In this document: positions 23,325 through 46,049 of the stretch, one piece after another
How the letters are laid out: every line of letters starts with the position of its first letter
How positions within the stretch are numbered: the stretch's first letter is position 1
Virus record (IMG/VR): IMGVR_UViG_3300010885_069896
Location: 21,983 to 85,982 of that record
Strand: one strand, 5' to 3'
Length of the DNA stretch: 64,000 bases
Origin: a virus
Lineage: Duplodnaviria > Caudoviricetes
Made by a program: the position numbers and the translations under genes
Notes under the pieces: generated by a model
What the model was told of the DNA's origin: nothing
The model's input: the letters and a program-made list of their open reading frames with translations, nothing else
Database searches by the model: none

Positions 23325-23597
23325 TTAAATTTTCGTTACGATCACTGTTGCGATTGATCTTATAATAATTCCAAGAAATAAAACTAAAAACAAATTAGAA
23401 TCAGTGAATGTAATATTTTTATTTATCTTAGATAATGTTTTATCTTTGGAAATATTTAAATACATCATAGTTCCAAGTATTATTTCTGGTATTGCGTAGT
23501 GTAAATTAAAAATTAAATTATTTCTACAAAGTAGCCATTCTATTAGAAACAGAAAAATTAAAGGCCCCAGTATTTTGCAAGGGCAATCTTTTTTCAT
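23325..23597 (-). CDS. Small membrane protein
   Basis: 90 aa with about three hydrophobic segments; ATGA-coupled to the upstream minus-strand gene. Confidence 0.5.
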   Translation of the reverse strand: MKKDCPCKILGPLIFLFLIEWLLCRNNLIFNLHYAIPEIILGTMMYLNISKDKTLSKINKNITFTDSNLFLVLFLGIIIRSIATVIVTKI

Positions 23598-23947
23598 GTT
23601 ATTTGACCATGTATGATGTGCATGTGATTTTGGTGAATATAAGCAGTTTTTTGATAATATTCAAAGAAAACAGGAAAAAGCATCACAAGATCACTACCTC
23701 CAAAACCTTTTGTGGTTTCGGTCATTCGTTCAACATATGATCTCTGGACTTTTACCGGTTCTCCTACTATTTTAGCAGTAAGACCACCTTTTACACCGCC
23801 AACAGGTCTTGGGAAAACACAACCATTCATGTCAATTCGAACATTTCCAATATTATCTTTTTCAAGCTCAAACACAGGAATGTTATCCGATGCCACACCA
23901 TGAACAATGCTACCCATACCTACTTTAACTGAATCTCCTATTGACAT
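23594..23947 (-). CDS. Hypothetical protein (117 aa)
   Basis: Start moved from track 24046 to the ATG at 23947, which follows AAAGGTAATAAT and avoids overlap with groEL. Confidence 0.6.
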   Translation of the reverse strand: MSIGDSVKVGMGSIVHGVASDNIPVFELEKDNIGNVRIDMNGCVFPRPVGGVKGGLTAKIVGEPVKVQRSYVERMTETTKGFGGSDLVMLFPVFFEYYQKTAYIHQNHMHIIHGQIT

Positions 23948-23985
23948 ATTATTACCTTTGTTTCCTAGTATTATATATTTGTTAT

Positions 23986-26754
23986 TTATTGCTGGCCAGT
24001 AACAACAACTGCATTTGTGGTCAAGAGAAGACCAATCACAGAACATGCATGAGAAAGCGATACACGTTCCACCTTATGAGGGTCAATAATTCCACAATCA
24101 ATTAAGTCGCAATAAACATGTTTTCTCGCATCGTACCCTTGGCGAATTCGTTCATTGACCATTGTTTTAACTTTATTCTCAACAGCTTCTAATGGTCTAT
24201 TGGTTTTGCCTGCAATATCATTTAAAACACTTCTTGCTTTGTCATTTGCCATGTTTTTTAATTCATTCATAACAACATCAGCACTTCGACCTGTATTCTC
24301 TACAATAACACGAAGTGGCTGGCGGCATGCTTCAAAAATAACTTTTGCCCCAGCCAATTCATCTTCAAGAAGGTCGTCCGCATTGATCGCCATTTCTCTT
24401 TGCAGCCATTCTGAGGCATAGAAAAGAGCCGTGCCACCACCTGGGAGGATTCCCTCTTGAACAGCCGCTATCGTGGCGTTTAAAGCGTCTTCTACACGGT
24501 CTTTCTTTTCAAAGATTTCAACTTCTGTCGATCCACCAACTTTAATAACAGCAATACCACCAGCGAGCTTAGCAAGTCGCTTTTTTGTGTTATCACGTTT
24601 CAGTTCATCAATCGCCACATTCGTTGCTAATAGTGAACGCAGTTGCTCAATTCGCTCATCGATAAGTAATTTACGGGCACTGTCTTCGCCCACAAGTGTA
24701 GTTGTGCCCCTGGAGATAATGGCACGTTTACATTTACCAAGATCCTTTAGGGTTACACTTTTTAGATTTGTCCCAGAACTGGCATCAATTACACTACCGC
24801 CAGTAACCAAAGCAATATCTGATAAAATATCAATTCTATTATCACCATAACTTGGTGCCTTAACGGCACAAGAAAATAAAACACCTTTCATTTTATTTAC
24901 AAGCAATGTATGTAAAGCTTCGCCTTCAATTTCATCACCGATAATTAAAAGAGGTTTATTGGCATTGGCAACCTGTTCAAGTACTGGTAAAATATCTGCT
25001 AATGAGCTAAGCTTACGATTTGTTATAAGAATGTAGGGCTCTGTTAGTTCGCAAGTTAGTTTTTCTTGATTTGTAACAAAGTAAGGAGAAACAAAACCAG
25101 ATTCAAATTGCATGCCTTCAACAACGTCAAGCGTTGTTTTCACGCTTTTTGCTGGTTCAATTGTAATAATTCCATCTTGTCCGACTTTAGAAATGGCATC
25201 GGAAAGTAATATCCCTATAGAGCGATCTCCGTTGGCAGAAATAGTTCCGATATTAATGATATCATCATTATTTCTTACGGGTATTGCATTTTCTTTAATC
25301 CATCCTGTAACTTTTTCCGTCGCCCACTCCATTCCATGCTTGATGGAAATAGATGAGCGGCCAGTAGCAATCATCTTGACACCTTGCTGAAGCATTGAGT
25401 ATCCTAGAACGGTAGCCGTCGTGGTGTTGTGCGTTGGAACATAATCATTTGTAATATATAAGCAATCTTGATTACTGACCTTGATACACATCATTTCAGT
25501 TTGCTTATCAAGTTTTTTAATATCAGTAATACGCATTCCACACTTATTACCTTTTAGCTCGGTAATTCTGTAAATTGGTTTAGTACTATAAGATCCATCA
25601 TTATGTTTTCTTGCATAAGTTTGTATATTGACTGATTTGCCAAGACTTCGACATAACTCAACAAAATCTTGACACAGTTGTTTACTAACCGTGCTATATT
25701 CAAATAATCCACGACTGTTAATGCTACCATCTGTATCAATCAAGCCATTTAGTAGTTTTTCTCTGACTGCGGTCACTGAATACAAATATTGCTTTGGAAT
25801 AAATTTAGTGTGGCTTGTTTTTCCAAGGAGTCCAAGTTGTTCTAAATGATTTTTTATGATGGATTTTTGTCCATGAACTGGTTGTTTTGCACGATGACTA
25901 CCAGTAATTGAGGCTTTTATATAATGTTTTGTGGATGTATAATATCTTTTACGTAGCTTACAGCCATCTGGCAAAACTATATTATCAAGAATATAGTTTT
26001 CTTTGAGACCAACCGAAATATCAATTTCATGTTTTTGCGAGAGACTGCCATCTCCAAGAAGAACGCCAAGTAAGTACGGGTCTATTGTTAAATCACTTGA
26101 ATTTTCAAATTCAACTGGTGTTTTATTAATAAAAAATCTTCCTCTACCCCCAAGTTGAGCTACAGCGCCCGTTTCTAATAGCGCTTTTGTAGTCATCACC
26201 TTTTCAGTTCCATAATTTGTGTTAACACTCCACAAATGATCCTCACAACACTCTACTGTTCTTGAAATTGTGTTGCGATTGCCGTCAGATATAATAACTT
26301 GATATATATCTCTCATTCCCTTTGGAAAGATACCAAGAACTTTTTGTACAGTTCCATTGGTACCGCAAATTGAGTCACCTATTTTTAATGCACCTAATGT
26401 CGTCCATCCGTGCGGTGTTAATACTTTAGCGTATAGCGGCTGTGGCCCGTCACCTGCCAATTCATTTGTTTTACTTGCAATTTCTTTAATAAGTTCCGCC
26501 CCAATAGAAGGAAGCTTGTCTTTTAAATTAATACTTCTGGCAACCGTGACTCCATCTTTTGTGATTATTGGTGCAGTTACCCCGGTATCAATAATTACAT
26601 TATGCCCTGACGGACCCATCGTAGATTTTACGGCACGATAAAGAATTTCTGCTCCTTGCAGTAATTGAGTATGTGCCTCTTGGCCAAATGTTACTTCGTT
26701 CACTGATGGCTTTTGTTGCATTTCCGCTGCTACCATTTGTCCTGCTTTGCTCAT
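23986..26754 (-). CDS. groEL: Phage-encoded group I chaperonin (GroEL-like) with an intein; about 582 aa after splicing
   Basis: TMGPSGHNV, TKDGVTVA, AGDG|TTTATVL, EGMQFESGFVSPYF, KAPSYGD, ERIEQL, RLAKLAGGIAVIKVGG, GILPGGG and GIIDP motifs. Confidence 0.95.
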   Translation of the reverse strand: MSKAGQMVAAEMQQKPSVNEVTFGQEAHTQLLQGAEILYRAVKSTMGPSGHNVIIDTGVTAPIITKDGVTVARSINLKDKLPSIGAELIKEIASKTNELAGDGPQPLYAKVLTPHGWTTLGALKIGDSICGTNGTVQKVLGIFPKGMRDIYQVIISDGNRNTISRTVECCEDHLWSVNTNYGTEKVMTTKALLETGAVAQLGGRGRFFINKTPVEFENSSDLTIDPYLLGVLLGDGSLSQKHEIDISVGLKENYILDNIVLPDGCKLRKRYYTSTKHYIKASITGSHRAKQPVHGQKSIIKNHLEQLGLLGKTSHTKFIPKQYLYSVTAVREKLLNGLIDTDGSINSRGLFEYSTVSKQLCQDFVELCRSLGKSVNIQTYARKHNDGSYSTKPIYRITELKGNKCGMRITDIKKLDKQTEMMCIKVSNQDCLYITNDYVPTHNTTTATVLGYSMLQQGVKMIATGRSSISIKHGMEWATEKVTGWIKENAIPVRNNDDIINIGTISANGDRSIGILLSDAISKVGQDGIITIEPAKSVKTTLDVVEGMQFESGFVSPYFVTNQEKLTCELTEPYILITNRKLSSLADILPVLEQVANANKPLLIIGDEIEGEALHTLLVNKMKGVLFSCAVKAPSYGDNRIDILSDIALVTGGSVIDASSGTNLKSVTLKDLGKCKRAIISRGTTTLVGEDSARKLLIDERIEQLRSLLATNVAIDELKRDNTKKRLAKLAGGIAVIKVGGSTEVEIFEKKDRVEDALNATIAAVQEGILPGGGTALFYASEWLQREMAINADDLLEDELAGAKVIFEACRQPLRVIVENTGRSADVVMNELKNMANDKARSVLNDIAGKTNRPLEAVENKVKTMVNERIRQGYDARKHVYCDLIDCGIIDPHKVERVSLSHACSVIGLLLTTNAVVVTGQQ
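25426..26445 (-). mobile_element. 340-aa intein with a LAGLIDADG endonuclease, class-3 type (Pro1)
   Basis: Splits GDG|TTT; begins PQPLYAKVLTP; block B CCEDHLW, LAGLIDADG motifs YLLGVLLGDG and LNGLIDTDG, block F MMCIKV, ends VPTHN followed by Thr. Confidence 0.92.
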
Positions 26755-26761
26755 TGTTTTT

Positions 26762-27271
26762 TCATTCTTGTGGTAAGTTAACTGCTATTTTACGAACAGA
26801 GCCATCTGGCATCATGACTTCTCTTGTGTTGAGGTCTGGATCAGATAAGGCTGATCGAAAATTATTCATGGCATTATTTGCCGTTTGAGTACGTGGTTGA
26901 TTTCCTACTTCACTCAAAAAAACAGAAGGATCTAATTTTTCGCCAGTTTGATTTGTCGCTGCGGAGGATTTATCAACATTGCCATACCAAGAATTTACAC
27001 GTCCCATAGTATTTGCACATAAATCATCAACAAATGCCGTCAGCCTAGAAATAAGAACATTCCTTACTTCATCAATACTGCCATAAACTTCGCCATCCAC
27101 ACTGGAAAGATCAACAATTCTTTGTTTTTCTGGCGGTCCAATTGCAATCTTATATGAAACGCTCTCACCATCCAGAGAACGGTTAACTATTTCTTGTCTT
27201 ATGATGCCCGGTAAAACAGTTTGAGTTTTATTGCTAAGGACATATATTACTTGACCAATCGTATAACTCAT
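26762..27271 (-). CDS. Hypothetical protein
   Basis: 169-aa ORF immediately upstream of groEL in a tightly packed minus-strand operon. Confidence 0.65.
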   Translation of the reverse strand: MSYTIGQVIYVLSNKTQTVLPGIIRQEIVNRSLDGESVSYKIAIGPPEKQRIVDLSSVDGEVYGSIDEVRNVLISRLTAFVDDLCANTMGRVNSWYGNVDKSSAATNQTGEKLDPSVFLSEVGNQPRTQTANNAMNNFRSALSDPDLNTREVMMPDGSVRKIAVNLPQE

Positions 27272-27283
27272 TATTATATCCTA

Positions 27284-27694
27284 TCAGAACTTTGGAGTTC
27301 CTTGTAAAACCTTCATATAATCTTCAGTCAAAACAAGAATAACATCATTACTTGCCATTTTTCTTTCATAAGGCGTAAATTCTAGTTTGCTTAGTGAAGT
27401 TCTCAGCTTTTGTTCTGAGTCATATCCAGAATATAAATCAAAAAAATACAATATTTTCTCAAAAGCAGAAGTGTGCAGTGCCATTGGAACAATGCTATTA
27501 GTTGATTGTCTACGGCTCATCGCTTCATTGATATATTGGTCTGCATCGACAAGAATCATGTCTTGACGATCACCAGCATAAACTGCATATCGTTTTTGAC
27601 TAAGAATATCTCTTAGTTTTTTTTCTGATGCATGACCGCCAAAATTTCTACAGTTAAGAATTATTTGTTCTACAACGCTTGGATGAAATCTCAT
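27284..27694 (-). CDS. Hypothetical protein
   Basis: 136-aa ORF with a 4-nt overlap to its upstream neighbour. Confidence 0.6.
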   Translation of the reverse strand: MRFHPSVVEQIILNCRNFGGHASEKKLRDILSQKRYAVYAGDRQDMILVDADQYINEAMSRRQSTNSIVPMALHTSAFEKILYFFDLYSGYDSEQKLRTSLSKLEFTPYERKMASNDVILVLTEDYMKVLQGTPKF

Positions 27695-28185
27695 GAATTA
27701 ACCTCGTCAACTTTATTTTCTTCTTTAATCTCTTGCTCATACTGAGCTACTCGTTCTTCCTGAGTAGCTTTTACATGTGTTGCAATTTCATTTGCTTTTT
27801 CAACAACCCTATTGATTAAATCATTGCCATCTTTTCGTGCTTTAGCCAAAGGCTTTAGACCTAGACCAATGCGAATTTTGTCAATTGCTATCCCCATATC
27901 CAATTGAGGAAATTGTTCTTCTAAAACAGATTCAAGATGTTTGAAATCAATATACATGTGTGGATGTGGACCGTCCATGATCTCTTCTGGTTTACCAGAG
28001 TCTCCAACTTCATGCTCGCCTGTCTGTTTATATTCCATAAGGAATAGGCCGGTGGGCATATCTTTATCTTTTGGTATTACCATGTAAGGTATTGGAGATA
28101 CTTTTTCACCTGGGTAATTTGGAGCTTCGTAAAGAATCTCTGGTATAAAATTTAATTTTCTTGATTGTTGTTTTGATACACTCAT
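27691..28185 (-). CDS. Hypothetical protein
   Basis: 164-aa ORF with 4-nt overlaps on both sides. Confidence 0.65.
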   Translation of the reverse strand: MSVSKQQSRKLNFIPEILYEAPNYPGEKVSPIPYMVIPKDKDMPTGLFLMEYKQTGEHEVGDSGKPEEIMDGPHPHMYIDFKHLESVLEEQFPQLDMGIAIDKIRIGLGLKPLAKARKDGNDLINRVVEKANEIATHVKATQEERVAQYEQEIKEENKVDEVNS

Positions 28186-28487
28186 GATACACCTGTTTCT
28201 AAAACTTCTAGGAATAAATCAAAATAATGCTTATGTTGAACTTTTTTCTTGATATCAACCAATCTCAGAGCAAGTTTTAGTGTTTTTGTATCAAGCTTTT
28301 GTGAAAACTCTTCAACCAGTTCCTTTTTTTGTTCACGTAATACTTGCTCTTCATTTTCAAGAGTCCGCATACGTGAAACAAAATCTGAAACGATTGGCCG
28401 AAGATCGTTAAAATTTTCTGGCATTGAGTCTGGATCGTAATCTTGTGTTTTGCGTTTATTCATATGGCAATATTTTTCCGTAAACAT
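28182..28487 (-). CDS. GapR/DUF2312/T4 DsbA-like small DNA-binding protein (tentative)
   Basis: FVSRMRTLENEEQVLREQKKELVEEFSQKLDTKTLKLALRL follows the FIERIERLEEEK...D.K.....I.LR pattern of that family. Confidence 0.5.
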   Translation of the reverse strand: MFTEKYCHMNKRKTQDYDPDSMPENFNDLRPIVSDFVSRMRTLENEEQVLREQKKELVEEFSQKLDTKTLKLALRLVDIKKKVQHKHYFDLFLEVLETGVS

Positions 28488-28532
28488 TGTCTATATTAAT
28501 AGAAACAGCAGGGGTTTGTATAATTTTAAATT

Positions 28533-30134
28533 TTAGCGTCTTGCAACATTAGCTGCTGGTGCCGTGGGAGCAGCTAATGTATTTGTGACCGCAGCAGGAG
28601 CAGTAGGGGCAGCAACAGGTTGTGCAGCGATAGGAGTAGGATTAACAGCAGCGACAGCTTTAGGAGCAGCTGCTTTAATGGGTGGATTAACAGCTTGCAA
28701 AGACTGTAAGACAATTGCTTTACTTTTTTCTATTGCGTTTTTTGCCTTTGAAGGATCGACATTTTTATTCTTTTTGACAATGGCCGCAATAGAATCATCA
28801 ATAGCTTTAGAGATAGTTTCAGGTTTTTTCATATTGGCAAGTTTTGTTGGATCTACTGGATATTTTGTTGCAAGCTGATTTATCTCTTGAACATACTCCG
28901 GCCCCATCGTTGCTTGAAAAAATGTTGGCAAATAGCGGTCGATGAATTTTTGCTCATCAGATGCTACTTGCGTTTGAGCTATGACTTGTTTTAATATTTC
29001 TTTCATTTGTTCTGGGCCAACTATTTTTTCTATTTTTTTAATTTTTGGACCAGCGGGACTTGGATCTGGTTTATTTTTTTTCCAATTTCCAACAGATGTT
29101 ATTAATTCATTTGGTACTTCTGCTTTTGATTCTTTGCCAAAGATTTTTTGAATAAATCCTTCAATGATAATATCATCTTCGATATACCCAATACTCTCAG
29201 TTATTCCCATGTATTTTTTTATTTCTTCTTTTTCTTTTGCTGAAAGACCTGAAAAATATCTTTGTCGCTCTGTTGTGGATAGCGATTTTAATCTTCTTGC
29301 TGCTTTTTCCATGTCGGATTCGTCGGCATCCGTTGTGCCCGGTGCCCTAAACGGGCTTTGCTTCGCTCTTTCTTTATTTTGCGTTCTTTCATATTTTTTA
29401 TTTTGCATATAAGAACGGTAGGAGCCAGGATCGTTAATATTATTAAGCATCAAAAACTCAGACACGGATTCTAAAGCCGCATTTGCTTTCCCGGCACTGA
29501 TTATATTAAGCATTGTGGCAGCTGCCTCGGCTCCTTTTGCAGTAGTCGCAGCGGCAGTTACCATATTAAAAGGAGCTATAAAGAAACCAACACCCCAAAA
29601 GTCCTTTTTAAACATCTCCCAGCCAGCTTCAACTTGGGCCATATCTTTTTTATAATATTCTTCGATGCCTTTTAAAGTTTTACCCTCCCAGGCCCTCATT
29701 TTATCTGCAACGTAGTTAACCGCAGCAGGATCATTAAAGGGAATTATGGCGGCAACACTTCCGCCAACTAAAGTACCCAACAGTGAAATTCCCTGAGCGA
29801 CTAATTTAGCAGCTGTTGATTTAGTTGTTGCCCATGCTCCTCGTAAAGCGTCTAGGCCCATTACAGATCCGATAAATCCTCCTTGCTTTAAGGGTCCAGA
29901 ACCTGTACTATCGCCGCCACCGCCACCGCCACCGCCACCGCCACCGTAGCCACCACCAAAGCCGGATGTAGGGGCTGAAGGATAGTTGTCACTATAATCT
30001 CCACCATCATCCTGTTCATTCAGCAAAGTCAGCTCAGATATTACAGAATCTATTTCTTCTTCTATAACTGCTTCAAGGATCTCCATCCTTTTTTTCTGCA
30101 TTTGACGCTTGTAAATATTTTTCTTTGTTGCCAT
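28533..30134 (-). CDS. Hypothetical protein with a Gly tract and an Ala/Pro-rich tail, possibly an internal head protein
   Basis: 533 aa; N-terminal ILEAVIEEEI...LLNEQ, poly-Gly, internal ITES/IIEG motifs, AAPTAP-rich C-terminus. Confidence 0.65.
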   Translation of the reverse strand: MATKKNIYKRQMQKKRMEILEAVIEEEIDSVISELTLLNEQDDGGDYSDNYPSAPTSGFGGGYGGGGGGGGGGGDSTGSGPLKQGGFIGSVMGLDALRGAWATTKSTAAKLVAQGISLLGTLVGGSVAAIIPFNDPAAVNYVADKMRAWEGKTLKGIEEYYKKDMAQVEAGWEMFKKDFWGVGFFIAPFNMVTAAATTAKGAEAAATMLNIISAGKANAALESVSEFLMLNNINDPGSYRSYMQNKKYERTQNKERAKQSPFRAPGTTDADESDMEKAARRLKSLSTTERQRYFSGLSAKEKEEIKKYMGITESIGYIEDDIIIEGFIQKIFGKESKAEVPNELITSVGNWKKNKPDPSPAGPKIKKIEKIVGPEQMKEILKQVIAQTQVASDEQKFIDRYLPTFFQATMGPEYVQEINQLATKYPVDPTKLANMKKPETISKAIDDSIAAIVKKNKNVDPSKAKNAIEKSKAIVLQSLQAVNPPIKAAAPKAVAAVNPTPIAAQPVAAPTAPAAVTNTLAAPTAPAANVARR

Positions 30135-30488: not shown

Positions 30489-31286
30489 ATGACATGGCAG
30501 CAAAAAAATTTTTTGTTTAAAAGACTAGGGCTGTTAGATTATTCATACAAAAATAAATCAGGTTTATATCTCATAGAAAATTTAGATAGCAATCGATTTT
30601 ATGTTGGCAGTGCAGTCGATCTATATAAAAGAATGCACGTTCACCTTTGTCAATTAAAAGGAAATTATCATCATAACGCATTTTTACAACATGATTATAA
30701 TTCTGGTAACAAAAAATTAGTTTTTACCGTTCTTGAGTTAATATCAAAGGATTTATTAATTACCGAAGAACAAAAATATATAGATTTAATTGGTAATAAT
30801 TCGGTTTGTTACAATATTTGTAAAATTGCTGGTAGTTGGCTTGGAAAAAAACACTCAGCAAAAACAAAAAAGATCTTAAGCGAAAAATCCATCGGAAGAA
30901 AAATATCAGATGCCACAAAGGAAAAAATAAGAAGATCTCACGTTGGCAAACCTCTATCGCCACATCATCCAATCCGAAATGGACATACAGAGCAGAGTAA
31001 AAATAAAATTTCAAAAACTATGCAGGGAAATAAAAATCATTTTTACGGCAAAACACATTCTAATAAGACAAAAACATTAATTAGAGAAAAACTACTAGGA
31101 AACTACCATGGCCCAAGAACAAGAGTGAAGATAATTAATAAAGACTCTGGGGAGATTTTAGTTTTTGATAGCATGTCTGCCGCTGGTAAAAAACTGGGAA
31201 TTAGTCAGTCTTATATAAGTCAAGTTTGTGCGGGTAAAATTAAAAATAATAAACCTTGGAATTTTGAGATAATTAAAGAAGAATAA
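30489..31286 (+). CDS. Free-standing GIY-YIG homing endonuclease (NUMOD3 repeats, NUMOD1-like C-terminus)
   Basis: SGLYLIEN...FYVGSAVDLYKRM..H...EEQKYI..CYN; HSAKTKKILS, HTEQSKNKIS and HSNKTKTLI repeats; FDSMSAAGKKLGISQSYISQVC. Confidence 0.9.
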   Translation: MTWQQKNFLFKRLGLLDYSYKNKSGLYLIENLDSNRFYVGSAVDLYKRMHVHLCQLKGNYHHNAFLQHDYNSGNKKLVFTVLELISKDLLITEEQKYIDLIGNNSVCYNICKIAGSWLGKKHSAKTKKILSEKSIGRKISDATKEKIRRSHVGKPLSPHHPIRNGHTEQSKNKISKTMQGNKNHFYGKTHSNKTKTLIREKLLGNYHGPRTRVKIINKDSGEILVFDSMSAAGKKLGISQSYISQVCAGKIKNNKPWNFEIIKEE

Positions 31287-31287
31287 T

Positions 31288-34200
31288 ATGGCAAATCAAC
31301 AAAAAAGTTTCTATCAACGTTTAACTCGTCTTTTCCGAAGTGGCCCAGCAATTCGCCGCAAAGTAAAAGGGCAAGATTATAAAAATTTCTACGATAATCA
31401 AGTTGTACAAAACAATCTAGGATATTATGGTGCATCTGGGTTTAAACGGGAAGCATCGCCATTTTCCGTCATGGGTGCTTATGGTATCCTCGATCGCAAT
31501 TCAAGATATGCAGAGTTCGCAGAAATGGAAAACTGCTTGCATGGTGACACTAAAATTGCAGTGCCTGGAGGATATAAAACACTCAAGGAACTAACTGAAG
31601 AATATGGATTAGAAAAAGATTTCATTGTATATTCTTACGATCACAAAAAAGGTGCAATTTTTCCGGCAGTGGCACGTCAGGCAAGACATACTACAACCAC
31701 TCATGCTTATCGAGTTAAATTTGATAATGGCAAAGAAATTATAGGAACAGAGGATCATCGTCTCATGAAACGAGATGGTACTTATTGTGAAATTCGTGAT
31801 CTTAAGTCTGGTGATGCGATGATGCCATTTTATCGACGATCTCTTGTCGGACAAAAAACAGGACCAGAGCTTCAAAAAAATTGTTATCAAGTTATATACA
31901 CGATGAATAAAGAAGATAGTCCATCTAGATGGATATCGGAGCACAGATTGTTAGGTAAATTTATCACAGGAAAAGGTTTGGCTGCAAACGAAGTTGTTCA
32001 TCATAAAAATTTTCAAGCTCACGATAATCGACTAGAAAATCTAGAGCTTATGACACTGGAGGCACATCAAACGTTGCACGCAAAAATACTGAATGGTAAA
32101 AAATGGGACAAAGAAACCAACTCAGAATGGATATCAGCATTCAAGAAACGTCACTCGGCTTGGATGAAAGAAAATAACCCAGCAGAAAGAAAAGATATTA
32201 AATTTGAAAGAATATTGCAATGGTGTGATGAAAACGGTTATAATTTACATGCTGTCGCTAGAGCGTTTGATACTGACCTCAATACAATTAAAAGAAAACT
32301 AAAATTAAAAGGCTTTAATGATTTTATTTCATTCGCAAAAGCATACTGCGTTGGCTGGAAACCTTATAACGGAGAAAATAAAGGATCTAGTAACAATCGC
32401 TATCGTAGCGATCTAACGTTTGAATCGATCTGCAACGCATACACAAAAGGGCTAAGTCAAAAAGCGCTCGCCAAGAAACTAAAATCTTCAGTTACTCCAA
32501 TAAATGCTAGGTTAAAAGAACACAAATATAATACATGGTCAGAATTCGCCTCGACATATGAAAATCTTAAAGTTGAAAGCATTGAGTATTATGGGATAAC
32601 TGACCTGTATGATATCACTGTCGATGGTTACAAAAACTTTGCGACAGATTCTCTCATAGCCCACAATACGGCTGAGATCGCTACTGCATTAAATGTATAT
32701 GCTGACGAGTCTTGTGCGACTGATGAAAAAGGAAAAACATTCCACATTTACTCAGAAAATGCACAAGTACAAAAGGCGCTAGAAGAGTTGTTTTACGAAG
32801 TTGTTAATATTGAATTTAATGCCCGTAGAATGGTGAGAAATTTAGTTAAAAATGGCGACTATTTTTGTTATGTTGAAGTAGTACCAGATTTTGGCGTTAT
32901 TAATGTTGAACCATTGCCAGTCAATGAAATCGAACGTGAAGAAGGATTCGATAAACATGATCCATATGCTGTTCGTTATCGCCTGATAACTCGTGGCGGA
33001 AAATATTTAGAAAACTGGCAGATGCTACATTTCCGTATTCTTGGAAATGATCTTTTCCTTCCGTATGGAACAAGCTTTCTTGAATCTGCACGTAGGTCAT
33101 GGCGTCAGTTAACAATGATGGAAGATGCGATGATGGTATATCGCTTAGTGCGATCACCGGAACGTCGTGTGTTTTATATAGATGTATCAGCAGTCCATCC
33201 AAACGATATTCCATCATATATGGAGGCCGTCAAGGAGGGGATGAGAGGTGCTTCCGTAATTGAGCAGCAGCAAGGTCGTCAGGATTTCAGATATAACCCA
33301 TTGCCCGTGCATAAAGATACTGGGATTCCACTGCTTGACGGCAGAACAATAACCATTGAAGAGCTTGCGAAAGAGTACGATACAGGAAAAGAAAACTGGG
33401 TATATTCTATTCAGGACTCTAGCCTCGGAATAGTTCCAGGTAAAGTAGCATGGTGTGGTAAAAATTATACCGCAAATAAATTAATCAAGATAACTCTTGA
33501 TGATGGAACTAGCCTTAAAACTGCACCAGAGCACCCTTACGTGCTTCGTGATGGTTCAAGTGTAAGAGCGGACCAATTGATCCCTGGAATGTCTCTAATG
33601 CCCCTTTATAGAGAGATTACGGACAAAGGATATGAACGGTGCTATAACCCAGAAACCCAGAAATATGAAACCACTCATTCTTTAGTTGCAAAAAACTTCT
33701 ACCAGAATGAATGGCAGAATACAGCGAGACCTGTGGTTCATCATAAGTGTCCATGGGAAAGAGAAACTAATAAAAGAAATAATTCTCCAAGAAATCTAGA
33801 AGTAATGAATTTTTGGCAACATAGAGAGCTTCATGCAAAAATGGTTGAGCATACTTTGCTTCGCCCCGAAGTATTAAAAGAAAATTCTCGTAGATTGACA
33901 CGATACAATCGTTCAAAACTACATAGCACCCGTGTGTCATTGAATAATATAAAATATCAAAAGGGCCAAAAATTATCTCAGCTATACAATGGTTCTGATC
34001 TTCACAAAGAGCATAATGAAATCAGAAAAGCTGCTCAATTTAATTCATGGTCATTGAACAAGGCGGAACGTTGCCAAGCAATGAGATTTAAATTTACGGA
34101 AAAATGCTTGCAAATAGCTAAAGATTTGCTGTCTGCTAACCCAACTATTTCACGAGATGAATTTGGGGCAAGATTACAAAATAATATTGAATTCGTAGCG

Positions 34201-36825
34201 GCGATAAAAGAAGCAAACGCTAATACGAAACGTCAAAATAAAATCCCAAACCATAGAATACTTGCACAGAATATTTCTAACTATGCTGGTTTTGAATCTT
34301 ATGTGGATTTCAAAAACTCATTCTCTTCTCATCAATATCTTAATCATAAAATTTCAATAGTTGAGACAGTCACAGAAACAGTTGATGTTTATTGCATGAC
34401 AGTGGTTGGGCCAAATGGTGAAGAAGATCGTCACAATTTTGCTGCTGTATCTAATGATGATACGGGTAATTCTAAAGAAAAAATTTCGGCAATATTTCTA
34501 AAAAACTCCGTAGATGAGGATTACTTTCTACCAACTAGACCAAACAATCAGACTAAAATTGAATCTATTGCGGGTGGACAAAATACAACGGCCACAGAAG
34601 ATGTGGAGTACATCCAGAAAAAACTTATTGCTGCCCTCATGGTACCAAAGGCGTACCTTACATACGATGAAGCAATATCATGCTTGGTCGGAGAAACGCA
34701 AATACCTTTACTTGACGGTTCTAGCCCCACTATCAAAGAACTTTCAGATAAATTTGCTAATGGAGAATTAACTGAAGCTTATTGCTATTCGACTTTACTT
34801 GATGGGACAGTTGTTCCAGGTAAAATAAACAAAGCGTGGGCCACCAAAAAAGTAAATTCAACATATCGGATTTATTTAGACAATGGAGAATATATCGACT
34901 GTACGGAAAATCACCCATTCCTGTTTAAAAACGGGGTCTATAAACGTGCTGATGAATTGACTGTTAATGACTCATTGATGCCTGTGTATAAAAAACTATC
35001 CTCCAAACAAGACAAAGATTTACTGGATGGATATGAAATGGTATTTGACAATAAAACTGGTGAATGGAAATATACACACAAAATGGTATCTGACTGGCAA
35101 GCTGAAAACAATGGTGGTTATACTATAGGTAAACAAAGAGTAGTACACCATGTAGATTTTAATAAACTAAATAATAGTCCAAAAAATCTACAAGAGATGA
35201 CTTGGTACAGCCATAGAAAACTACATTCACAAAATCTTTCATCGACAATTTTACGACCAGATGTAATGATAAAACGAGAGCCAAGTAGACTTGCTGCGCT
35301 TTCGGCATCTAGACACCGTAATATAAAATCAAGACAAATGAAACAACAAATGAACGATCCAAAATCGGCTTTGCGTTCATGGGTCCATGGGGAAGAAATA
35401 AAACAAGTAGTATCCAGAAACATGAAAGCCGCTTGGAGTACCGAGAAATATCGTTCAATAAAAACCAAGCAAAATAAAGAGATATTACAAAAACCAGAAG
35501 TTAGAGAAAAATTGTTTGGTAAAAATCATTGGGCTGCAAGAGCTACTAAACATTTTGATTTGAATTGGCTTGTTGAATACTGTAAACAAAACAATGTAAC
35601 AGAATATCTGCATTTCAGAAAATCATCACAGAACAATTCACCATGTAGCTCTAGAGTAGTCGGAAGAATATTCAGAGAAAACAATATTTCTGGCTGGCGT
35701 GAATTTGAAAAACAATATCTTTGTTTCAATCACAAAGTTATTCAGATAGAAATAAAAGAGTGCGGTGATGAAGCCACACAGGGTGTTTGGGTATATGACT
35801 TGGAAGTAGAAAAGACACACAACTTCCTTGTAAAACAAGGCGTGGTAGTACACAACAGCAAAAGTACATTGGCTCAGGAGGACATTAGATTTTCTCGCAC
35901 AATTGCAACATTACAAAAAATCATGATTGCTGAATTAAATAAACTTGCAATCATTCATTTGTATGCACTTGGATTCAGCGGAGATGATTTATTAAACTTT
36001 GAACTTAAATTCTCCAACCCTTCGACAGTAGCAGTCCAGCAAAAACTAGCATTGGTTTCTCAAAAAATAGAAATAGCGGCAAAAGCTTGGGAAGTTTCTA
36101 AAGAAACAGGCATTATGAGTATGCCATATATTCAAAAAGAAATTCTTGGACTTCGCCCAGAAGAAATAAATCAAATCCGTCTTGAGGCCCGTCAAGATCA
36201 AGTTGCAATGGCCGAGCTTAAGAAAATAGCAGAAAATCCACCATTTGATAATTCCCTCGACTCAAATATAGATATTTTTGATAAGGGTAACTATAGCGTA
36301 CCATCTTCTCCTTTTGCGCCAGACCCTAAACAACTAAGAGATATCGAATTAAAAAATCAAGAAGATGAACTAGCACTTCGCAGAGAAAGAAAATTGGAAA
36401 AGGAAAAAAATGGAGAAAACTCAGGCGCTCCAATTAAACTTAACCCAACGCCAAATCTTGATAAAGCATTCCGCAGGAATAAAAGAAGCAAAGAATTCAC
36501 TGGCATCAGTGCTTTGGCAATGCCTAACTTTAAAGACATGCTTGATATAACAAATAATCGTTATTCTAAAGACCCGTATGATACCCAGAGTTCAAATTAT
36601 ACAAGAAAATTTGTTCTTGAAGAAAGTCAGATTGAAAATGAGTTGCTTGGTCGTGGAAAACTACCATATAAAATTTCAAAAGAAATGCAATCTACATTAA
36701 AAACAATGAATGAATCCATGAAAAGAGATTTTGAAATTAAAGGAATTGAACTGGTAAATGAAAAATCTTCAGAAGATCAATCAGATATGTTATTTTTAAT
36801 AGAAAAAGATCTAAAAACAGAATAG
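31288..36825 (+). CDS. gp20: Portal vertex protein (T4 gp20-like) with three inteins; about 674 aa after splicing
   Basis: Extein motifs EIATALNVYADE, EDAMMVYRLVRSPERRVFYIDV, EDYFLP, DVEYIQKKLIAALMVPK and TLAQEDIRFSRTI are characteristic of gp20-like portals. Confidence 0.93.
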   Translation: MANQQKSFYQRLTRLFRSGPAIRRKVKGQDYKNFYDNQVVQNNLGYYGASGFKREASPFSVMGAYGILDRNSRYAEFAEMENCLHGDTKIAVPGGYKTLKELTEEYGLEKDFIVYSYDHKKGAIFPAVARQARHTTTTHAYRVKFDNGKEIIGTEDHRLMKRDGTYCEIRDLKSGDAMMPFYRRSLVGQKTGPELQKNCYQVIYTMNKEDSPSRWISEHRLLGKFITGKGLAANEVVHHKNFQAHDNRLENLELMTLEAHQTLHAKILNGKKWDKETNSEWISAFKKRHSAWMKENNPAERKDIKFERILQWCDENGYNLHAVARAFDTDLNTIKRKLKLKGFNDFISFAKAYCVGWKPYNGENKGSSNNRYRSDLTFESICNAYTKGLSQKALAKKLKSSVTPINARLKEHKYNTWSEFASTYENLKVESIEYYGITDLYDITVDGYKNFATDSLIAHNTAEIATALNVYADESCATDEKGKTFHIYSENAQVQKALEELFYEVVNIEFNARRMVRNLVKNGDYFCYVEVVPDFGVINVEPLPVNEIEREEGFDKHDPYAVRYRLITRGGKYLENWQMLHFRILGNDLFLPYGTSFLESARRSWRQLTMMEDAMMVYRLVRSPERRVFYIDVSAVHPNDIPSYMEAVKEGMRGASVIEQQQGRQDFRYNPLPVHKDTGIPLLDGRTITIEELAKEYDTGKENWVYSIQDSSLGIVPGKVAWCGKNYTANKLIKITLDDGTSLKTAPEHPYVLRDGSSVRADQLIPGMSLMPLYREITDKGYERCYNPETQKYETTHSLVAKNFYQNEWQNTARPVVHHKCPWERETNKRNNSPRNLEVMNFWQHRELHAKMVEHTLLRPEVLKENSRRLTRYNRSKLHSTRVSLNNIKYQKGQKLSQLYNGSDLHKEHNEIRKAAQFNSWSLNKAERCQAMRFKFTEKCLQIAKDLLSANPTISRDEFGARLQNNIEFVAAIKEANANTKRQNKIPNHRILAQNISNYAGFESYVDFKNSFSSHQYLNHKISIVETVTETVDVYCMTVVGPNGEEDRHNFAAVSNDDTGNSKEKISAIFLKNSVDEDYFLPTRPNNQTKIESIAGGQNTTATEDVEYIQKKLIAALMVPKAYLTYDEAISCLVGETQIPLLDGSSPTIKELSDKFANGELTEAYCYSTLLDGTVVPGKINKAWATKKVNSTYRIYLDNGEYIDCTENHPFLFKNGVYKRADELTVNDSLMPVYKKLSSKQDKDLLDGYEMVFDNKTGEWKYTHKMVSDWQAENNGGYTIGKQRVVHHVDFNKLNNSPKNLQEMTWYSHRKLHSQNLSSTILRPDVMIKREPSRLAALSASRHRNIKSRQMKQQMNDPKSALRSWVHGEEIKQVVSRNMKAAWSTEKYRSIKTKQNKEILQKPEVREKLFGKNHWAARATKHFDLNWLVEYCKQNNVTEYLHFRKSSQNNSPCSSRVVGRIFRENNISGWREFEKQYLCFNHKVIQIEIKECGDEATQGVWVYDLEVEKTHNFLVKQGVVVHNSKSTLAQEDIRFSRTIATLQKIMIAELNKLAIIHLYALGFSGDDLLNFELKFSNPSTVAVQQKLALVSQKIEIAAKAWEVSKETGIMSMPYIQKEILGLRPEEINQIRLEARQDQVAMAELKKIAENPPFDNSLDSNIDIFDKGNYSVPSSPFAPDPKQLRDIELKNQEDELALRRERKLEKEKNGENSGAPIKLNPTPNLDKAFRRNKRSKEFTGISALAMPNFKDMLDITNNRYSKDPYDTQSSNYTRKFVLEESQIENELLGRGKLPYKISKEMQSTLKTMNESMKRDFEIKGIELVNEKSSEDQSDMLFLIEKDLKTE
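31534..32667 (+). mobile_element. Portal intein 1 (378 aa, class 1, HNH endonuclease)
   Basis: CLHGDTKI start, block B GTEDH, HNH motif VVHHKNFQAHDNRLENL, block F LYDITV, ends AHN followed by Thr. Confidence 0.92.
33304..34506 (+). mobile_element. Portal intein 2 (401 aa, Pro1, block-F Cys, HNH endonuclease)
   Basis: Removing it restores RYNPL|SVDEDYFLP; PVHKDTGIPLLDG aligns without gaps to CLVGETQIPLLDG of intein 3; HNH motif VVHHK...NNSPRNL; block F VYCMTV; ends FLKN followed by Ser. Confidence 0.88.
34681..35856 (+). mobile_element. Portal intein 3 (392 aa, class 1, HNH endonuclease)
   Basis: CLVGETQI start, block B CTENH, HNH motif VVHHVDFNKLNNSPKNL, block F VYDLEV, ends VHN followed by Ser. 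Confidence 0.92.
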
Positions 36826-38432: not shown

Positions 38433-39296
38433 ATGAAGTATTATTACGGCAGTAATTTACAATCTCCCTGCATTTACAAAATATTTAACACGCACTCCAA
38501 AAGAGTTTACATTGGCCAAACAATCACTGTTAAAAAGAGGTGGGTTTCGGGCCATAGCCTTAGATTAAAAAACAATAATCATTTTAATATTATTTTACAG
38601 AACGATTTCAATAAATGCTACAAAGCGCTAGGTCATACCGATTTTCTAGAATTTCATATTATTGAGTTATTGCCAGACTCAACACAGGAAACAAGAAATT
38701 TAAAAGAATGGCAATGGATAAATGAATATAAGAAAACACATAAGTTATATAATATAATTCTAGAGTGTGATGGCCGAAAAGAAATGCCTCAAGAGTTAAA
38801 AAATAAAATTAGTGAAACCAAGAAAAAATACTATAAATCCGAAGAAGGCAAAATTTTTATTGAAAAATTGTCAAAAAATAGGCTTGGAAAATCATATGAA
38901 GAATATTACGGAGAAGAGTTTGCGTCTGAAATAAAAAAATCCATAAGTGATAATAAAATTATTACAATGAATTTACCAGAGGTAAAAGAAAATCTATCTA
39001 AAATATTTACCGGAAAATCATTCCAAGAGCGTTTCGGAGAAAGTAAGGCAGAAGAAATTTTAGAGAAGATGAGCGCTGCTCGCAAAGGAAAATATATCGG
39101 TAAAGAAAGTTCTCGATTTCGTATTATTGAGAACATCAAACTACTATCTCCTGATGGAATGATTTACAATAAAATTGAGGGCATCAAAGAGTTTGCCAAA
39201 GAGCATAAACTATCCAAGCATCATTTATGTGAATTGCTTGCAGGAAAAAGAAGAAGTCACCATGGATGGGTACTAGTTAATGATAATAATCAATGA
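38433..39296 (+). CDS. Free-standing GIY-YIG homing endonuclease
   Basis: CIYKIFN...VYIGQT...KKRW..H...KEWQWI...YN; C-terminal LLSPDG...EFAKEHKL...GKRRSHHGW module. Confidence 0.87.
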   Translation: MKYYYGSNLQSPCIYKIFNTHSKRVYIGQTITVKKRWVSGHSLRLKNNNHFNIILQNDFNKCYKALGHTDFLEFHIIELLPDSTQETRNLKEWQWINEYKKTHKLYNIILECDGRKEMPQELKNKISETKKKYYKSEEGKIFIEKLSKNRLGKSYEEYYGEEFASEIKKSISDNKIITMNLPEVKENLSKIFTGKSFQERFGESKAEEILEKMSAARKGKYIGKESSRFRIIENIKLLSPDGMIYNKIEGIKEFAKEHKLSKHHLCELLAGKRRSHHGWVLVNDNNQ

Positions 39297-44039: not shown

Positions 44040-46049
44040 ATGTTATCAAAAACCCTAACACTCTCACAGCTCGCAGAAGGTATTCAACGTACCAGCGCAA
44101 CAGCAGGCAATGATCGCATCGTCGGCAAATGGAACAAAACCGGTCTACTAGAAGGTCTTTCAAACCTTGGTAAAGAAAAGATGGCACGCCTTCTTGAAAA
44201 CCAAGCTTGCGAAGTCCTCCGTGGCGGTTCCTCAATGCTTAACGAAAGCCTTTCCCTCTCCCAAGGTGGAGCAGGTATGGCTTCTAGCGGCCAAGTCGCT
44301 GGTTTTACCAACGTAGCATTCCCAATCGTCCGTAGAGTATTCGCTGGCCTAGTTGCCAACGAAGTAGTCTCCGTACAACCAATGAGCCTTCCATCAGGTC
44401 TGCTCTTTTATCTTGATTACACCTACGGTTCATACGTTGGTGGCGATGCTGGTCAAAACGTTTCAGGATACCCAGCAAATGGCACAACAACAGGTGGCCC
44501 AACCACAGCAGACCCAGGGGCAGCAACATATGCTCGTGGTAACTCACTATACACCAACCCATCCGGTTCCGCAATCCGCACCCAAGGTGCCCTTGCAGCT
44601 GGTGGTCAATATAACCTAATCGGTTCTGGTTACTCAAAAGTACACGTCCAAACCGCACTAACCTCATCTGGTATTCTTGTTGGTTCATGGCAAGGCGGCA
44701 CCACTTGGCTAACAGGTTCAACCGTTGCATCAGCTTCCGCAAACGTTGGTTACAATGCTCGTTTCAGTTCATATGACCCAACACTCGCAGCTGACGTAGA
44801 AGTTGCTGCAAGAGATTTCACATTCCTTGTTATGACTGCTTCACACTTTACAGACAGAGTTGCTGGTGCAGATCTTCAATCAGTTGATCAAATTGCTCTG
44901 GTTGGCTTCGGTGTTTCAGGCACTGTCGGTGGCGCACAAGTATTCTCACCTGTTCCAGCGACCTATCAGGCTGGCGAAGGCGTACTAAACTTCCGTCGTT
45001 TCAACCAACGTGGCAACTGGGATGCATCAGCACTGACCTTCACCCCAGCACCATTCGATGGCTCACACGTTCTATTTGTAATGAACGTTGCAAATGGCGC
45101 AGGTACCGTTTTACTCCCAGGCACTGGTCTTGGCGCAGTAACAACCGCAGTAACTGCTTCAGTTGTAATTGGCGATTCACTCTCAGTAAATGCTGATGGT
45201 TCAACCCTCACCATTCCAAGCTTTGAATCCAACTTTGCAACCAGCACAGCACAGCCAGTGATTCCAGATGTGGACATCAAAATTGAATCAGTTGCCGTAA
45301 CAGCAACAACCCGTAAACTCCGTGCACGTTGGTCCCCAGAAATGGCACAAGACCTCACTGCATTCTACTCAATCGATGTAGAAGCTGAGCTTACCAATAT
45401 TCTCTCAGAAATGATCACTCTCGATATCGACCGTGAAATTCTAAACGACCTCCTTACACAAGCTCAAGCAGCTAACTACTTCTGGAGCCGTGCCCCAGGT
45501 CGCTTTGTTAACAAATACACCGGTTCAGAAGTTGCACGTACAGCTTCCGGCGTATATCCAGGTCCAAACTTCACAGGCACCGTCCGTGAATGGTACGAAA
45601 CCCTCATCGAAACCATCACTGATGCAGCCAACGTCATCCACAAGAAAACCCTTCGTGGTTCAGGCAACTTCATTGTTTGCTCACCAGAAGTTGGTACCAT
45701 CCTTGAAGCAACCGTTGCTTACCGTGCAAACTACAAAATCGACAGCGATGGCCAAGTTCGTGACAACATGAGCATCGGCGCAGAAGCAGTCGGCACCGTA
45801 AACGGTCGCTACTCAGTGTTCGTTGACCCATACTTCCCAGTGAACAAAGTTCTCGTGGGCCTCAAAGGTTCAACCTTCCTAGAATCAGGGTATATCTATG
45901 CTCCATACGTGCCCCTCATTCTAACTCCAGTCATCTATGCACAAGATGACTTCACCCCAAGAAAAGGGATTATGACTAGATACGGGAAAAAAATGGTGAG
46001 AGCTGATTTCTACGCAACCGTCACCTGCCTAGACATGTCAATAATCTGA
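44040..46049 (+). CDS. gp23: Major capsid protein (T4 gp23-like)
   Basis: KWNKTGLLEGL, AFPIVRRVFAGLVANEVVSVQPMSLPSGLLFYLD, TRKLRARWSPEMAQDL, EIDREI-like DIDREIL, and YAPYVPL...FTPRKGIMTRYG motifs; strong AAGGAG RBS. Confidence 0.96.
   Translation: MLSKTLTLSQLAEGIQRTSATAGNDRIVGKWNKTGLLEGLSNLGKEKMARLLENQACEVLRGGSSMLNESLSLSQGGAGMASSGQVAGFTNVAFPIVRRVFAGLVANEVVSVQPMSLPSGLLFYLDYTYGSYVGGDAGQNVSGYPANGTTTGGPTTADPGAATYARGNSLYTNPSGSAIRTQGALAAGGQYNLIGSGYSKVHVQTALTSSGILVGSWQGGTTWLTGSTVASASANVGYNARFSSYDPTLAADVEVAARDFTFLVMTASHFTDRVAGADLQSVDQIALVGFGVSGTVGGAQVFSPVPATYQAGEGVLNFRRFNQRGNWDASALTFTPAPFDGSHVLFVMNVANGAGTVLLPGTGLGAVTTAVTASVVIGDSLSVNADGSTLTIPSFESNFATSTAQPVIPDVDIKIESVAVTATTRKLRARWSPEMAQDLTAFYSIDVEAELTNILSEMITLDIDREILNDLLTQAQAANYFWSRAPGRFVNKYTGSEVARTASGVYPGPNFTGTVREWYETLIETITDAANVIHKKTLRGSGNFIVCSPEVGTILEATVAYRANYKIDSDGQVRDNMSIGAEAVGTVNGRYSVFVDPYFPVNKVLVGLKGSTFLESGYIYAPYVPLILTPVIYAQDDFTPRKGIMTRYGKKMVRADFYATVTCLDMSII

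Follow-up and report, generated by a model that had tools for sequence, protein, structure and literature searches.

The nucleotide-binding loop of a GroEL chaperonin encoded by an uncultured T4-like phage is split, between the GDG and the TTT of its GDGTTT motif, by an in-frame insert of 340 residues. The gene lies in a 64,000-nucleotide stretch of viral DNA (IMG/VR record IMGVR_UViG_3300010885_069896, positions 21,983 to 85,982), which is referred to here as the window and from whose first letter all coordinates are counted. We consider it highly probable, at roughly 85%, that the insert is a splicing-competent, mobile class 3 intein equipped with a LAGLIDADG homing endonuclease. The initial annotation of the window had proposed an intein of this class, with proline at position 1 and the diagnostic Trp-Cys-Thr (WCT) triplet, and every sequence-level feature that defines the class is present. 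The mechanism of class 3 inteins is itself already known; what appears to be undescribed is their presence in chaperonin hosts of both groups, the size of the chaperonin-borne family, and its confinement to phages.

The groEL precursor is encoded on the minus strand by an open reading frame (ORF) of 922 residues (23986-26754, stop codon included), as given by the ORF list and its translation. Even with the insert in place, the precursor scores 589.2 bits against the GroEL model TIGR02348 (cut-off 582.1) and matches Pfam Cpn60_TCP1 at 4.6e-48; both the score above this equivalog cut-off and the contiguous GDGTTT loop that results once the insert is removed identify the host protein as GroEL. 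The N-extein (26446-26754, minus strand; residues 1-103) ends in ELAGDG, the first half of the nucleotide-binding loop, and the C-extein (23986-25425, minus strand; residues 444-922 and the stop codon) resumes with TTTATVLG. Between the two, positions 25426-26445 of the minus strand translate without a stop into 340 residues (precursor residues 104-443) that start with PQPLYAKVLTP and end with YVPTHN, comprising a split HINT domain with a LAGLIDADG homing endonuclease between its halves. The nearest intein-less homologues (P0048, P0054, and P0059; extein identity 81-85%) read AGDG-TTTATVL uninterrupted, and all intein-less proteins in an alignment of 206 sequences form a pure gap across the 340 intein residues. 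The G-D-G at the end of the N-extein is invariant in an alignment of 138 sequences, and the intein junctions can be regarded as fixed because a shifted boundary would not rebuild GDGTTT. The translation and the intein-less homologues thus match, to the base, the initial placement of the insert precisely within the GDGTTT motif of a phage GroEL, and the length computed for GroEL after removal of the insert, 582 residues, is the length that had been anticipated (about 582).

The functional residues of the insert can be located individually, all on the minus strand. Pro1, the first intein residue (26443-26445), is evident from both sequence and conservation and provides no N-terminal nucleophile. 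The core of block B, H70-L71-W72 within EDHLW (26230-26238), supplies the B10 His and the B12 Trp of the WCT triplet. Block F, EMMCIKVSNQDCLYIT (25450-25497), contains MMCIKV and with it Cys320 at position F4 (codon 25486-25488), the predicted initiating nucleophile. Block G ends in T338-H339-N340 (25426-25434)—the G5 Thr of the triplet, the penultimate His, and the terminal Asn—and is followed by Thr+1 (25423-25425), which opens the C-extein as the first of the three Thr in GDG-TTT and is the predicted final acyl acceptor. The raw sequence contains the codons for H70, W72, C320, and T338 where the initial annotation had read the triplet, in EDHLW, MMCIKV, and PTHN. Two further cysteines are non-catalytic: Cys66 of block B6 (26248-26250), upstream of the block B core, and the near-invariant Cys27 (26365-26367). 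Within the endonuclease, LAGLIDADG motif 1, DPYLLGVLLGDGSL (26041-26082; intein residues 122-135), carries the catalytic Asp132, and motif 2, LLNGLIDTDGSI (25720-25755; intein residues 231-242), carries the catalytic Asp239. Pfam recovers Hom_end (3.5e-9) and LAGLIDADG_3 (1.7e-6), which span intein residues 216-295, together with a weak N-terminal Hint signal. The insert therefore has the architecture of a LAGLIDADG intein, a HINT domain interrupted by a two-motif domain with an acidic residue in each motif, and the earlier description of both motifs as intact agrees with the two Asp residues and with the Pfam endonuclease matches.

Family, structure, and class of the intein

Two family searches, one word-indexed over 5.8 billion proteins and one run exhaustively with HMMER over 1.84 billion cluster representatives, recovered at least 164 distinct metagenomic chaperonins in which this insert occupies this site. 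Their length is mostly 850-930 residues, and their inteins range from about 40% to 99% identity to the GroEL intein of the window. The initial view that a chaperonin is an unusual host stands for the searchable literature, in which no chaperonin host is named, but not for the sequence data, in which at least 164 clusters carry the insert. One family member, P0003, is 99% identical to the window protein and represents a cluster of 41 members on two contigs, and the window allele has therefore been sampled independently.

Conservation within the family is concentrated on the residues expected to matter for splicing and homing. P1, Q2, P3, H70, W72, T338, H339, and N340 are each at least 97% conserved across the 164 chaperonin inteins, as are M318, I321, V323, S324, L329, Y330, and T332 around block F, and C320 is kept in every one (164/164). 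In the 138-sequence alignment, P1, H70, T338-H339-N340, and Thr+1 are invariant. Both LAGLIDADG motifs, with their Asp residues (G-D-G in motif 1, T-D-G in motif 2), are at least 90% conserved. This pattern indicates selection on both splicing and endonuclease function. The non-catalytic cysteines are also widely retained, Cys66 in 163 of the 164 inteins and Cys27 in 158.

The definition of class 3 requires a position 1 other than Ser, Thr, or Cys, combined with Trp at B12, Cys at F4, and Thr at G5; at +1, where Cys is rare, all members except one have Thr or Ser (Tori et al., 2010; PMC2807308). The GroEL intein combines Pro1, H70-x-W72, C320 at F4, T338-H339-N340, and Thr+1, and it is homologous to inteins for which class 3 splicing has been proven experimentally (those of mycobacteriophage Bethlehem, Msm DnaBi1, and Mch DnaB1). 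A class 1 intein, which would need Cys, Ser, or Thr at position 1, is ruled out by Pro1. Class 2 (KlbA-type) inteins also have no N-terminal nucleophile, but they are without the WCT triplet (PMC2807308), and the invariance of the triplet in the chaperonin family sets the GroEL intein apart from this class as well.

The closest comparison is with the prototype class 3 intein, MP-Be of mycobacteriophage Bethlehem (Tori et al., 2010; PMC2807308). We located this 341-residue intein in gp11 of the phage genome (AY500153), beside the portal gene; the right half of that record, near the DnaB-like gene, was also searched and contains none. The two inteins align over residues 1-340 with 28% identity (E 1e-23), which makes them distant relatives. 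Both have Pro1, the His-x-Trp of block B, the F4 Cys, a THN end, and Thr+1; both contain an in-frame, two-motif LAGLIDADG endonuclease (341 versus 340 residues in total); and both are inserted at a nucleotide-binding loop of a phage gene. They differ in host, MP-Be residing not in a chaperonin but in gp11, whose place immediately upstream of the portal gene is that of a terminase, and in that MP-Be has neither the block B6 Cys nor Gln2-Pro3, both of which are kept by nearly all of the chaperonin inteins.

A search against PDB sequences matched five inteins: 6riz (4e-8), 6bs8 (2e-5), 6rix (2e-5), 6riy (8e-5), and 6qaz (2.8e-5). The top match, 6riz, is an engineered version of gp41-1 that bears a grafted Trp and Cys (PMC7664689); its score is therefore partly man-made, natural gp41-1 (6qaz) reaching only 2.8e-5, and the natural mycobacterial class 3 inteins are the meaningful matches. 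The points of likeness to gp41-1 are an ocean-phage origin, the THN end, and a similar block B that includes the B6 Cys, but gp41-1 is a naturally split class 1 intein with Cys1. The mycobacterial inteins, Msm DnaBi1 (6bs8) and Mch DnaB1 (6rix and 6riy), share the splicing-domain fold over nearly their whole chain at 27-28% identity, along with the N-terminal strand TP-GWTT-G and the C-terminal pattern C..V.....LY......PTHN. They differ in being endonuclease-less mini-inteins of a cellular helicase, and in having a redox partner, Cys48, where the GroEL intein has Ile, and Ala at block B6.

Structural comparison leads to the same relatives. An AlphaFold model of the intein and the five nearest extein residues at either end, for which 138 family sequences were supplied, is of high predicted quality (predicted local distance difference test, pLDDT, 94.8; predicted template modelling score, pTM, 0.93). 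Over the whole intein, the model matches PI-SceI, the VMA1 intein (Z 26.4; root-mean-square deviation, rmsd, 3.1 Å over 313 residues), which likewise joins a HINT domain to a LAGLIDADG endonuclease, but which is a class 1 intein (Cys1, Cys+1) with an additional DNA-recognition region and about 20% identity. The three best matches among endonuclease-free structures are all class 3 inteins: 6riy (Mch DnaB1; Z 18.8, rmsd 1.8 Å, 128 of 130 residues), 6bs8 (Msm DnaBi1; Z 18.3, rmsd 1.5 Å, 123 of 125 residues), and 6rix (Z 18.3). Rmsd values for the class 3 mini-inteins lie between 1.5 and 2.1 Å overall; their Z scores are tied with those of Prp8 and gp41-1, and it is their sequence identity (27-28%) that is the highest.

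Mobility and host range

Among IMG/VR viral contigs of 30-390 kb, the intein is present in L003-L006 and L027 and absent from L010-L013, L026, and L037. Contigs of both kinds have the groEL neighbors of the window, three upstream ORFs and the downstream ORF, at 55-75% protein identity, and the empty alleles keep an intact DNA target, GCTGGTGATGGT running directly into ACCACCACTGC. The closest intein-less alleles have up to 85% extein identity to the window groEL; the IMG/VR relatives have 73-78% protein identity to the window, a divergence at which saturation of synonymous sites is expected. When mapped onto a tree of the exteins of 206 chaperonins, the intein requires 14 gain or loss changes, as against about 40 when labels are shuffled, and intein-bearing and intein-less alleles interleave around the window groEL. 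Mean pairwise identity is 51% for the inteins versus 36% for their exteins, and in one example pair the inteins are 64% identical and the exteins 23%.

Shortened inteins also occupy this site. Some measure 241-295 residues overall (P0052, P0014, P0015, P0047, and P0049 being 262-295 residues long), others 185 (P0093) or 157 (P0094-P0096); these mini-inteins are without all or part of the LAGLIDADG domain yet keep PQP...CIKVSN...THN. Taken qualitatively, the occupied and empty alleles, their interleaving, and the decayed copies suggest stages of a homing cycle, from invasion through fixation and endonuclease decay to loss. Homing activity is likewise suggested by presence and absence of the intein in syntenic phages and by the intact empty site: in mixed infections, the endonuclease would cleave the empty GDGTTT-coding site of intein-less groEL, into which the intein would then be copied.

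The next relatives beyond the chaperonin inteins, at 33-42% identity, reside in PhoH-like ATPases and in long multi-intein proteins. They share the end C[IL]x[VI]...LY[IV]TD.[FY]IVTHN, followed by [TS], and begin with Pro or Ala; in 99 non-chaperonin relatives, the block B His is present in all 99 and the Trp in 98. Across the deposited phage genomes (n = 50,697), the best matches of the intein (30-36% identity) lie in helicases, terminases, and SNF2/DarB-like genes, and no record covers 80% or more of the precursor as an interrupted groEL would. The placement in a class 3 phylogeny that the initial annotation had called for was obtained with FastTree from 79 chaperonin inteins (as first labelled) and 82 other inteins, with the Bethlehem prototype serving as the outgroup. 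In this tree, the chaperonin inteins group in a single clade (support 0.74; next node out 1.0), and 11 apparent intruders within it proved to be chaperonins mislabelled by the pattern filter. A single clade suggests, as the simplest history, one colonization of the chaperonin site followed by spread.

This spread may have reached beyond GroEL. One family member, P0154 (863 residues), is a group II chaperonin of archaeal type, a thermosome (643.7 bits against thermosome_alpha, cut-off 450), with an intein at the homologous site: CGDG precedes the insert, which ends in THN, and TTSVVV follows. The insert is absent from its nearest thermosome relatives, P0273 (65% identity) and Thermoplasmatota thermosomes (about 55%). 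In the tree, the P0154 intein falls within the GroEL inteins, although local support there is weak (0.43). A scan of IMG/VR with P0154 gave no match for its contig. On sequence grounds, P0154 appears to reflect a transfer of the intein from a group I to a group II chaperonin by way of the shared GDGTTT-coding sequence.

Cellular genomes present a different picture. A scan with the family alignment over one genome per species, covering 185,579 prokaryote species, returned at least 314 relatives, of which the best 80 loci were kept. Two of these 80 were seen to be in chaperonins (L083 and L084), and the other 78 are at most 38% identical to the intein. L083 is a contig of 7.8 kb with an insert-bearing chaperonin. 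The 79 loci other than L083 were checked for a GDG-PxP junction and are without it; L084 (JAYSNU010000027.1, 5081 bp), binned with a Candidatus Nomurabacteria metagenome-assembled genome (MAG), was identified as a chaperonin with a variant junction, GDG followed by PQD (Pro-Gln-Asp). The adjoining ORF is terminase-like and contains a separate intein of class 1 type (ending in HN, followed by C); given this intein-bearing terminase, L084 most probably represents phage DNA that was wrongly binned with the MAG. As judged from the best 80 of at least 314 loci in 185,579 species, cellular groEL has not been invaded to any visible extent.

Splicing and alternative explanations

A course for splicing can be proposed because the GroEL intein is homologous to the Bethlehem and mycobacterial DnaB class 3 inteins, whose mechanism is established. 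After translation, Cys320, activated by His70 together with Trp72 and Thr338, would attack the bond between Gly(-1) and Pro1, and the N-extein would move to Cys320 as a thioester, giving a first branched intermediate. The N-extein would then be handed to the side chain of Thr+1, giving a second. Cyclization of Asn340 would free the intein, and an O-to-N acyl shift would restore the GDGTTT loop, leaving a 582-residue GroEL and a free endonuclease of 340 residues. In GroEL, this loop binds the phosphates of ATP. The unspliced precursor, with its loop interrupted, would presumably be unable to bind or hydrolyze ATP normally, and chaperonin activity would therefore depend on splicing. In all likelihood splicing itself is constitutive, and the intein is a selfish element, not a regulatory one.

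Several considerations weigh against this account. Splicing, the branched intermediates, the requirement for Cys320, and endonuclease activity are all argued by analogy with characterized inteins. A class 1 intein into which Trp, Cys, and Thr had been grafted did not splice efficiently by the class 3 route (PMC7664689); the triplet alone is therefore no guarantee of the class 3 mechanism, although here it is the whole domain that is homologous. The homologues were seeded by an intein-bearing query and so over-represent intein-bearing alleles, which makes the count of gains and losses and the comparison of intein with extein identity qualitative only. The support for the chaperonin clade (0.74), moreover, is moderate.

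An intein in this position might also be retained as a conditional switch that ties chaperonin activity to redox state, temperature, or metals, for example through a disulfide or oxidation at Cys320; the initial annotation had raised a redox- or temperature-sensitive switch of this kind as an inference. There is precedent among relatives: splicing of Msm DnaBi1 is reversibly blocked by H2O2 through a disulfide between Cys48 and Cys118, its F4 residue (PMC6195587), and temperature dependence is seen in mutants of the Bethlehem intein, among them those of Trp67 (PMC2807308). The near-invariance of Cys66 and Cys27 would also suit such a role. But the residue aligned with the DnaBi1 partner Cys48 is Ile47 in the GroEL intein, and the B6 Cys is also found in gp41-1 and in 67 of 99 non-chaperonin relatives (e.g., PhoH), which marks it as a lineage trait rather than a chaperonin-specific adaptation. 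Sister phages, furthermore, thrive with an uninterrupted groEL, and the repeated gain and loss of the intein is what would be expected of a selfish element. A switch is therefore unsupported, and we regard it as unlikely. Somewhat less likely again is a post-translational gate, in which the chaperonin would stay inactive until conditions permit splicing initiated by Cys320, for example under redox control through Cys320 with Cys66 or Cys27. If such a gate did exist, the folding of capsid protein could be timed to the state of the infected cell, and the spread of a single clade over divergent GroELs and a thermosome could reflect selection for the gate in addition to homing.

The two remaining alternatives, which concern splicing itself, are each very improbable. 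The window intein could be a relic that no longer splices, groEL then being effectively a pseudogene or yielding cleavage products only; a decayed class-3-like intein is known from the Arthrobacter pseudogene Arth_1007 (PMC3196547). Against decay of this sort, the 922-codon frame is open, all catalytic and near-invariant family residues are present, the exteins still exceed the GroEL equivalog cut-off, and the 99%-identical protein P0003 stands for 41 members on two contigs. Alternatively, the block F Cys could be non-obligate and the triplet only structural, with Thr+1, for example, attacking directly as in KlbA-like class 2 inteins, which resemble the GroEL intein in the absence of an N-terminal nucleophile. 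The +1 residue here is Thr, however, whereas the known class 2 inteins, to our knowledge, use Cys at that position. Class 2 is, in addition, defined by the absence of the WCT triplet that is invariant in the chaperonin family (PMC2807308), and full-length homologues lose splicing when the F4 Cys is replaced by Ala (C320A in Bethlehem, C118A in Msm DnaBi1; PMC2807308, PMC6195587). A constitutively splicing, selfish class 3 intein thus remains the preferred explanation.

Phage setting and wider meaning

The Portal_T4, Gp23, and sheath domains encoded in the window mark it as DNA of a T4-like phage. The groEL gene belongs to a block of small genes on the minus strand (23325-30134) that is syntenic in sister phages and gives no Pfam or PHROG match apart from two weak, sub-threshold hints, one GapR-like (28182-28487) and one phasin-like (27691-28185). 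In a partial check of seven ORFs of this block, no Pfam match to the co-chaperonin GroES (Cpn10) was found. Further copies of the GroEL intein were sought by tblastn within the 64-kb window, and there are none.

Other selfish elements are present nearby. The portal ORF (31288-36825, plus strand; 1845 residues) has, besides Portal_T4 (gp20), three stretches that match Intein_splicing, as well as HNH_3 domains; the portal gene thus holds several HNH inteins, which show no sequence relationship to the GroEL intein (no match by tblastn). Two free-standing homing-endonuclease genes flank the portal region, at 30489-31286 (plus strand; phrog_314) and 38433-39296 (plus strand; phrog_7168, also with an HNH match), and the morphogenesis module is crowded with selfish nucleases. 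The major capsid protein, of the Gp23 type (44040-46049, plus strand; 669 residues), contains an insertion of about 260 residues, rich in Gly, Ala, and Thr (approximately residues 130-390), between its two Pfam-matched stretches. This insertion was considered as a candidate intein and rejected, as it is without an intein end motif.

In searchable full text—which does not extend to InBase or most subscription journals, so that absence from it is no proof—no paper was found that names a chaperonin as an intein host. A magrovirus paper mentions both GroEL and inteins, but never together, and the word "intein" occurs zero times in a study of virioplankton GroELs (Marine et al., 2017; PMC5649160). 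Those virioplankton proteins, like gp146 of Pseudomonas phage EL and the chaperonin of phage OBP, are phage-borne group I chaperonins, as is the GroEL of the window, but their descriptions mention no intein. The hosts that have been documented are of other kinds: nucleophile-less inteins other than KlbA were all found in helicase-type ATPases (PMC2807308), and a 2025 survey of actinophages reports class 3 inteins in four extein types only, with chaperonins not among them.

The presence of such inteins in chaperonins has practical consequences. Annotation pipelines label the proteins of 850-930 residues simply as "chaperonin GroEL," and GroELs that bear inteins may be handled wrongly in surveys of phage chaperonins that use a length filter or an alignment of the ATP site. 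The family also includes many natural class 3 variants with Thr+1, both full-length and mini (157-295 residues), which are possible scaffolds for compact engineering. For class 3 inteins themselves, the host range widens from helicase-type ATPases and terminases to a protein-folding machine. The chaperonin inteins fit the rule that inteins settle in ATP-binding loops, and a single homing lineage appears to use the GDGTTT site in group I chaperonins and its homologue in group II.

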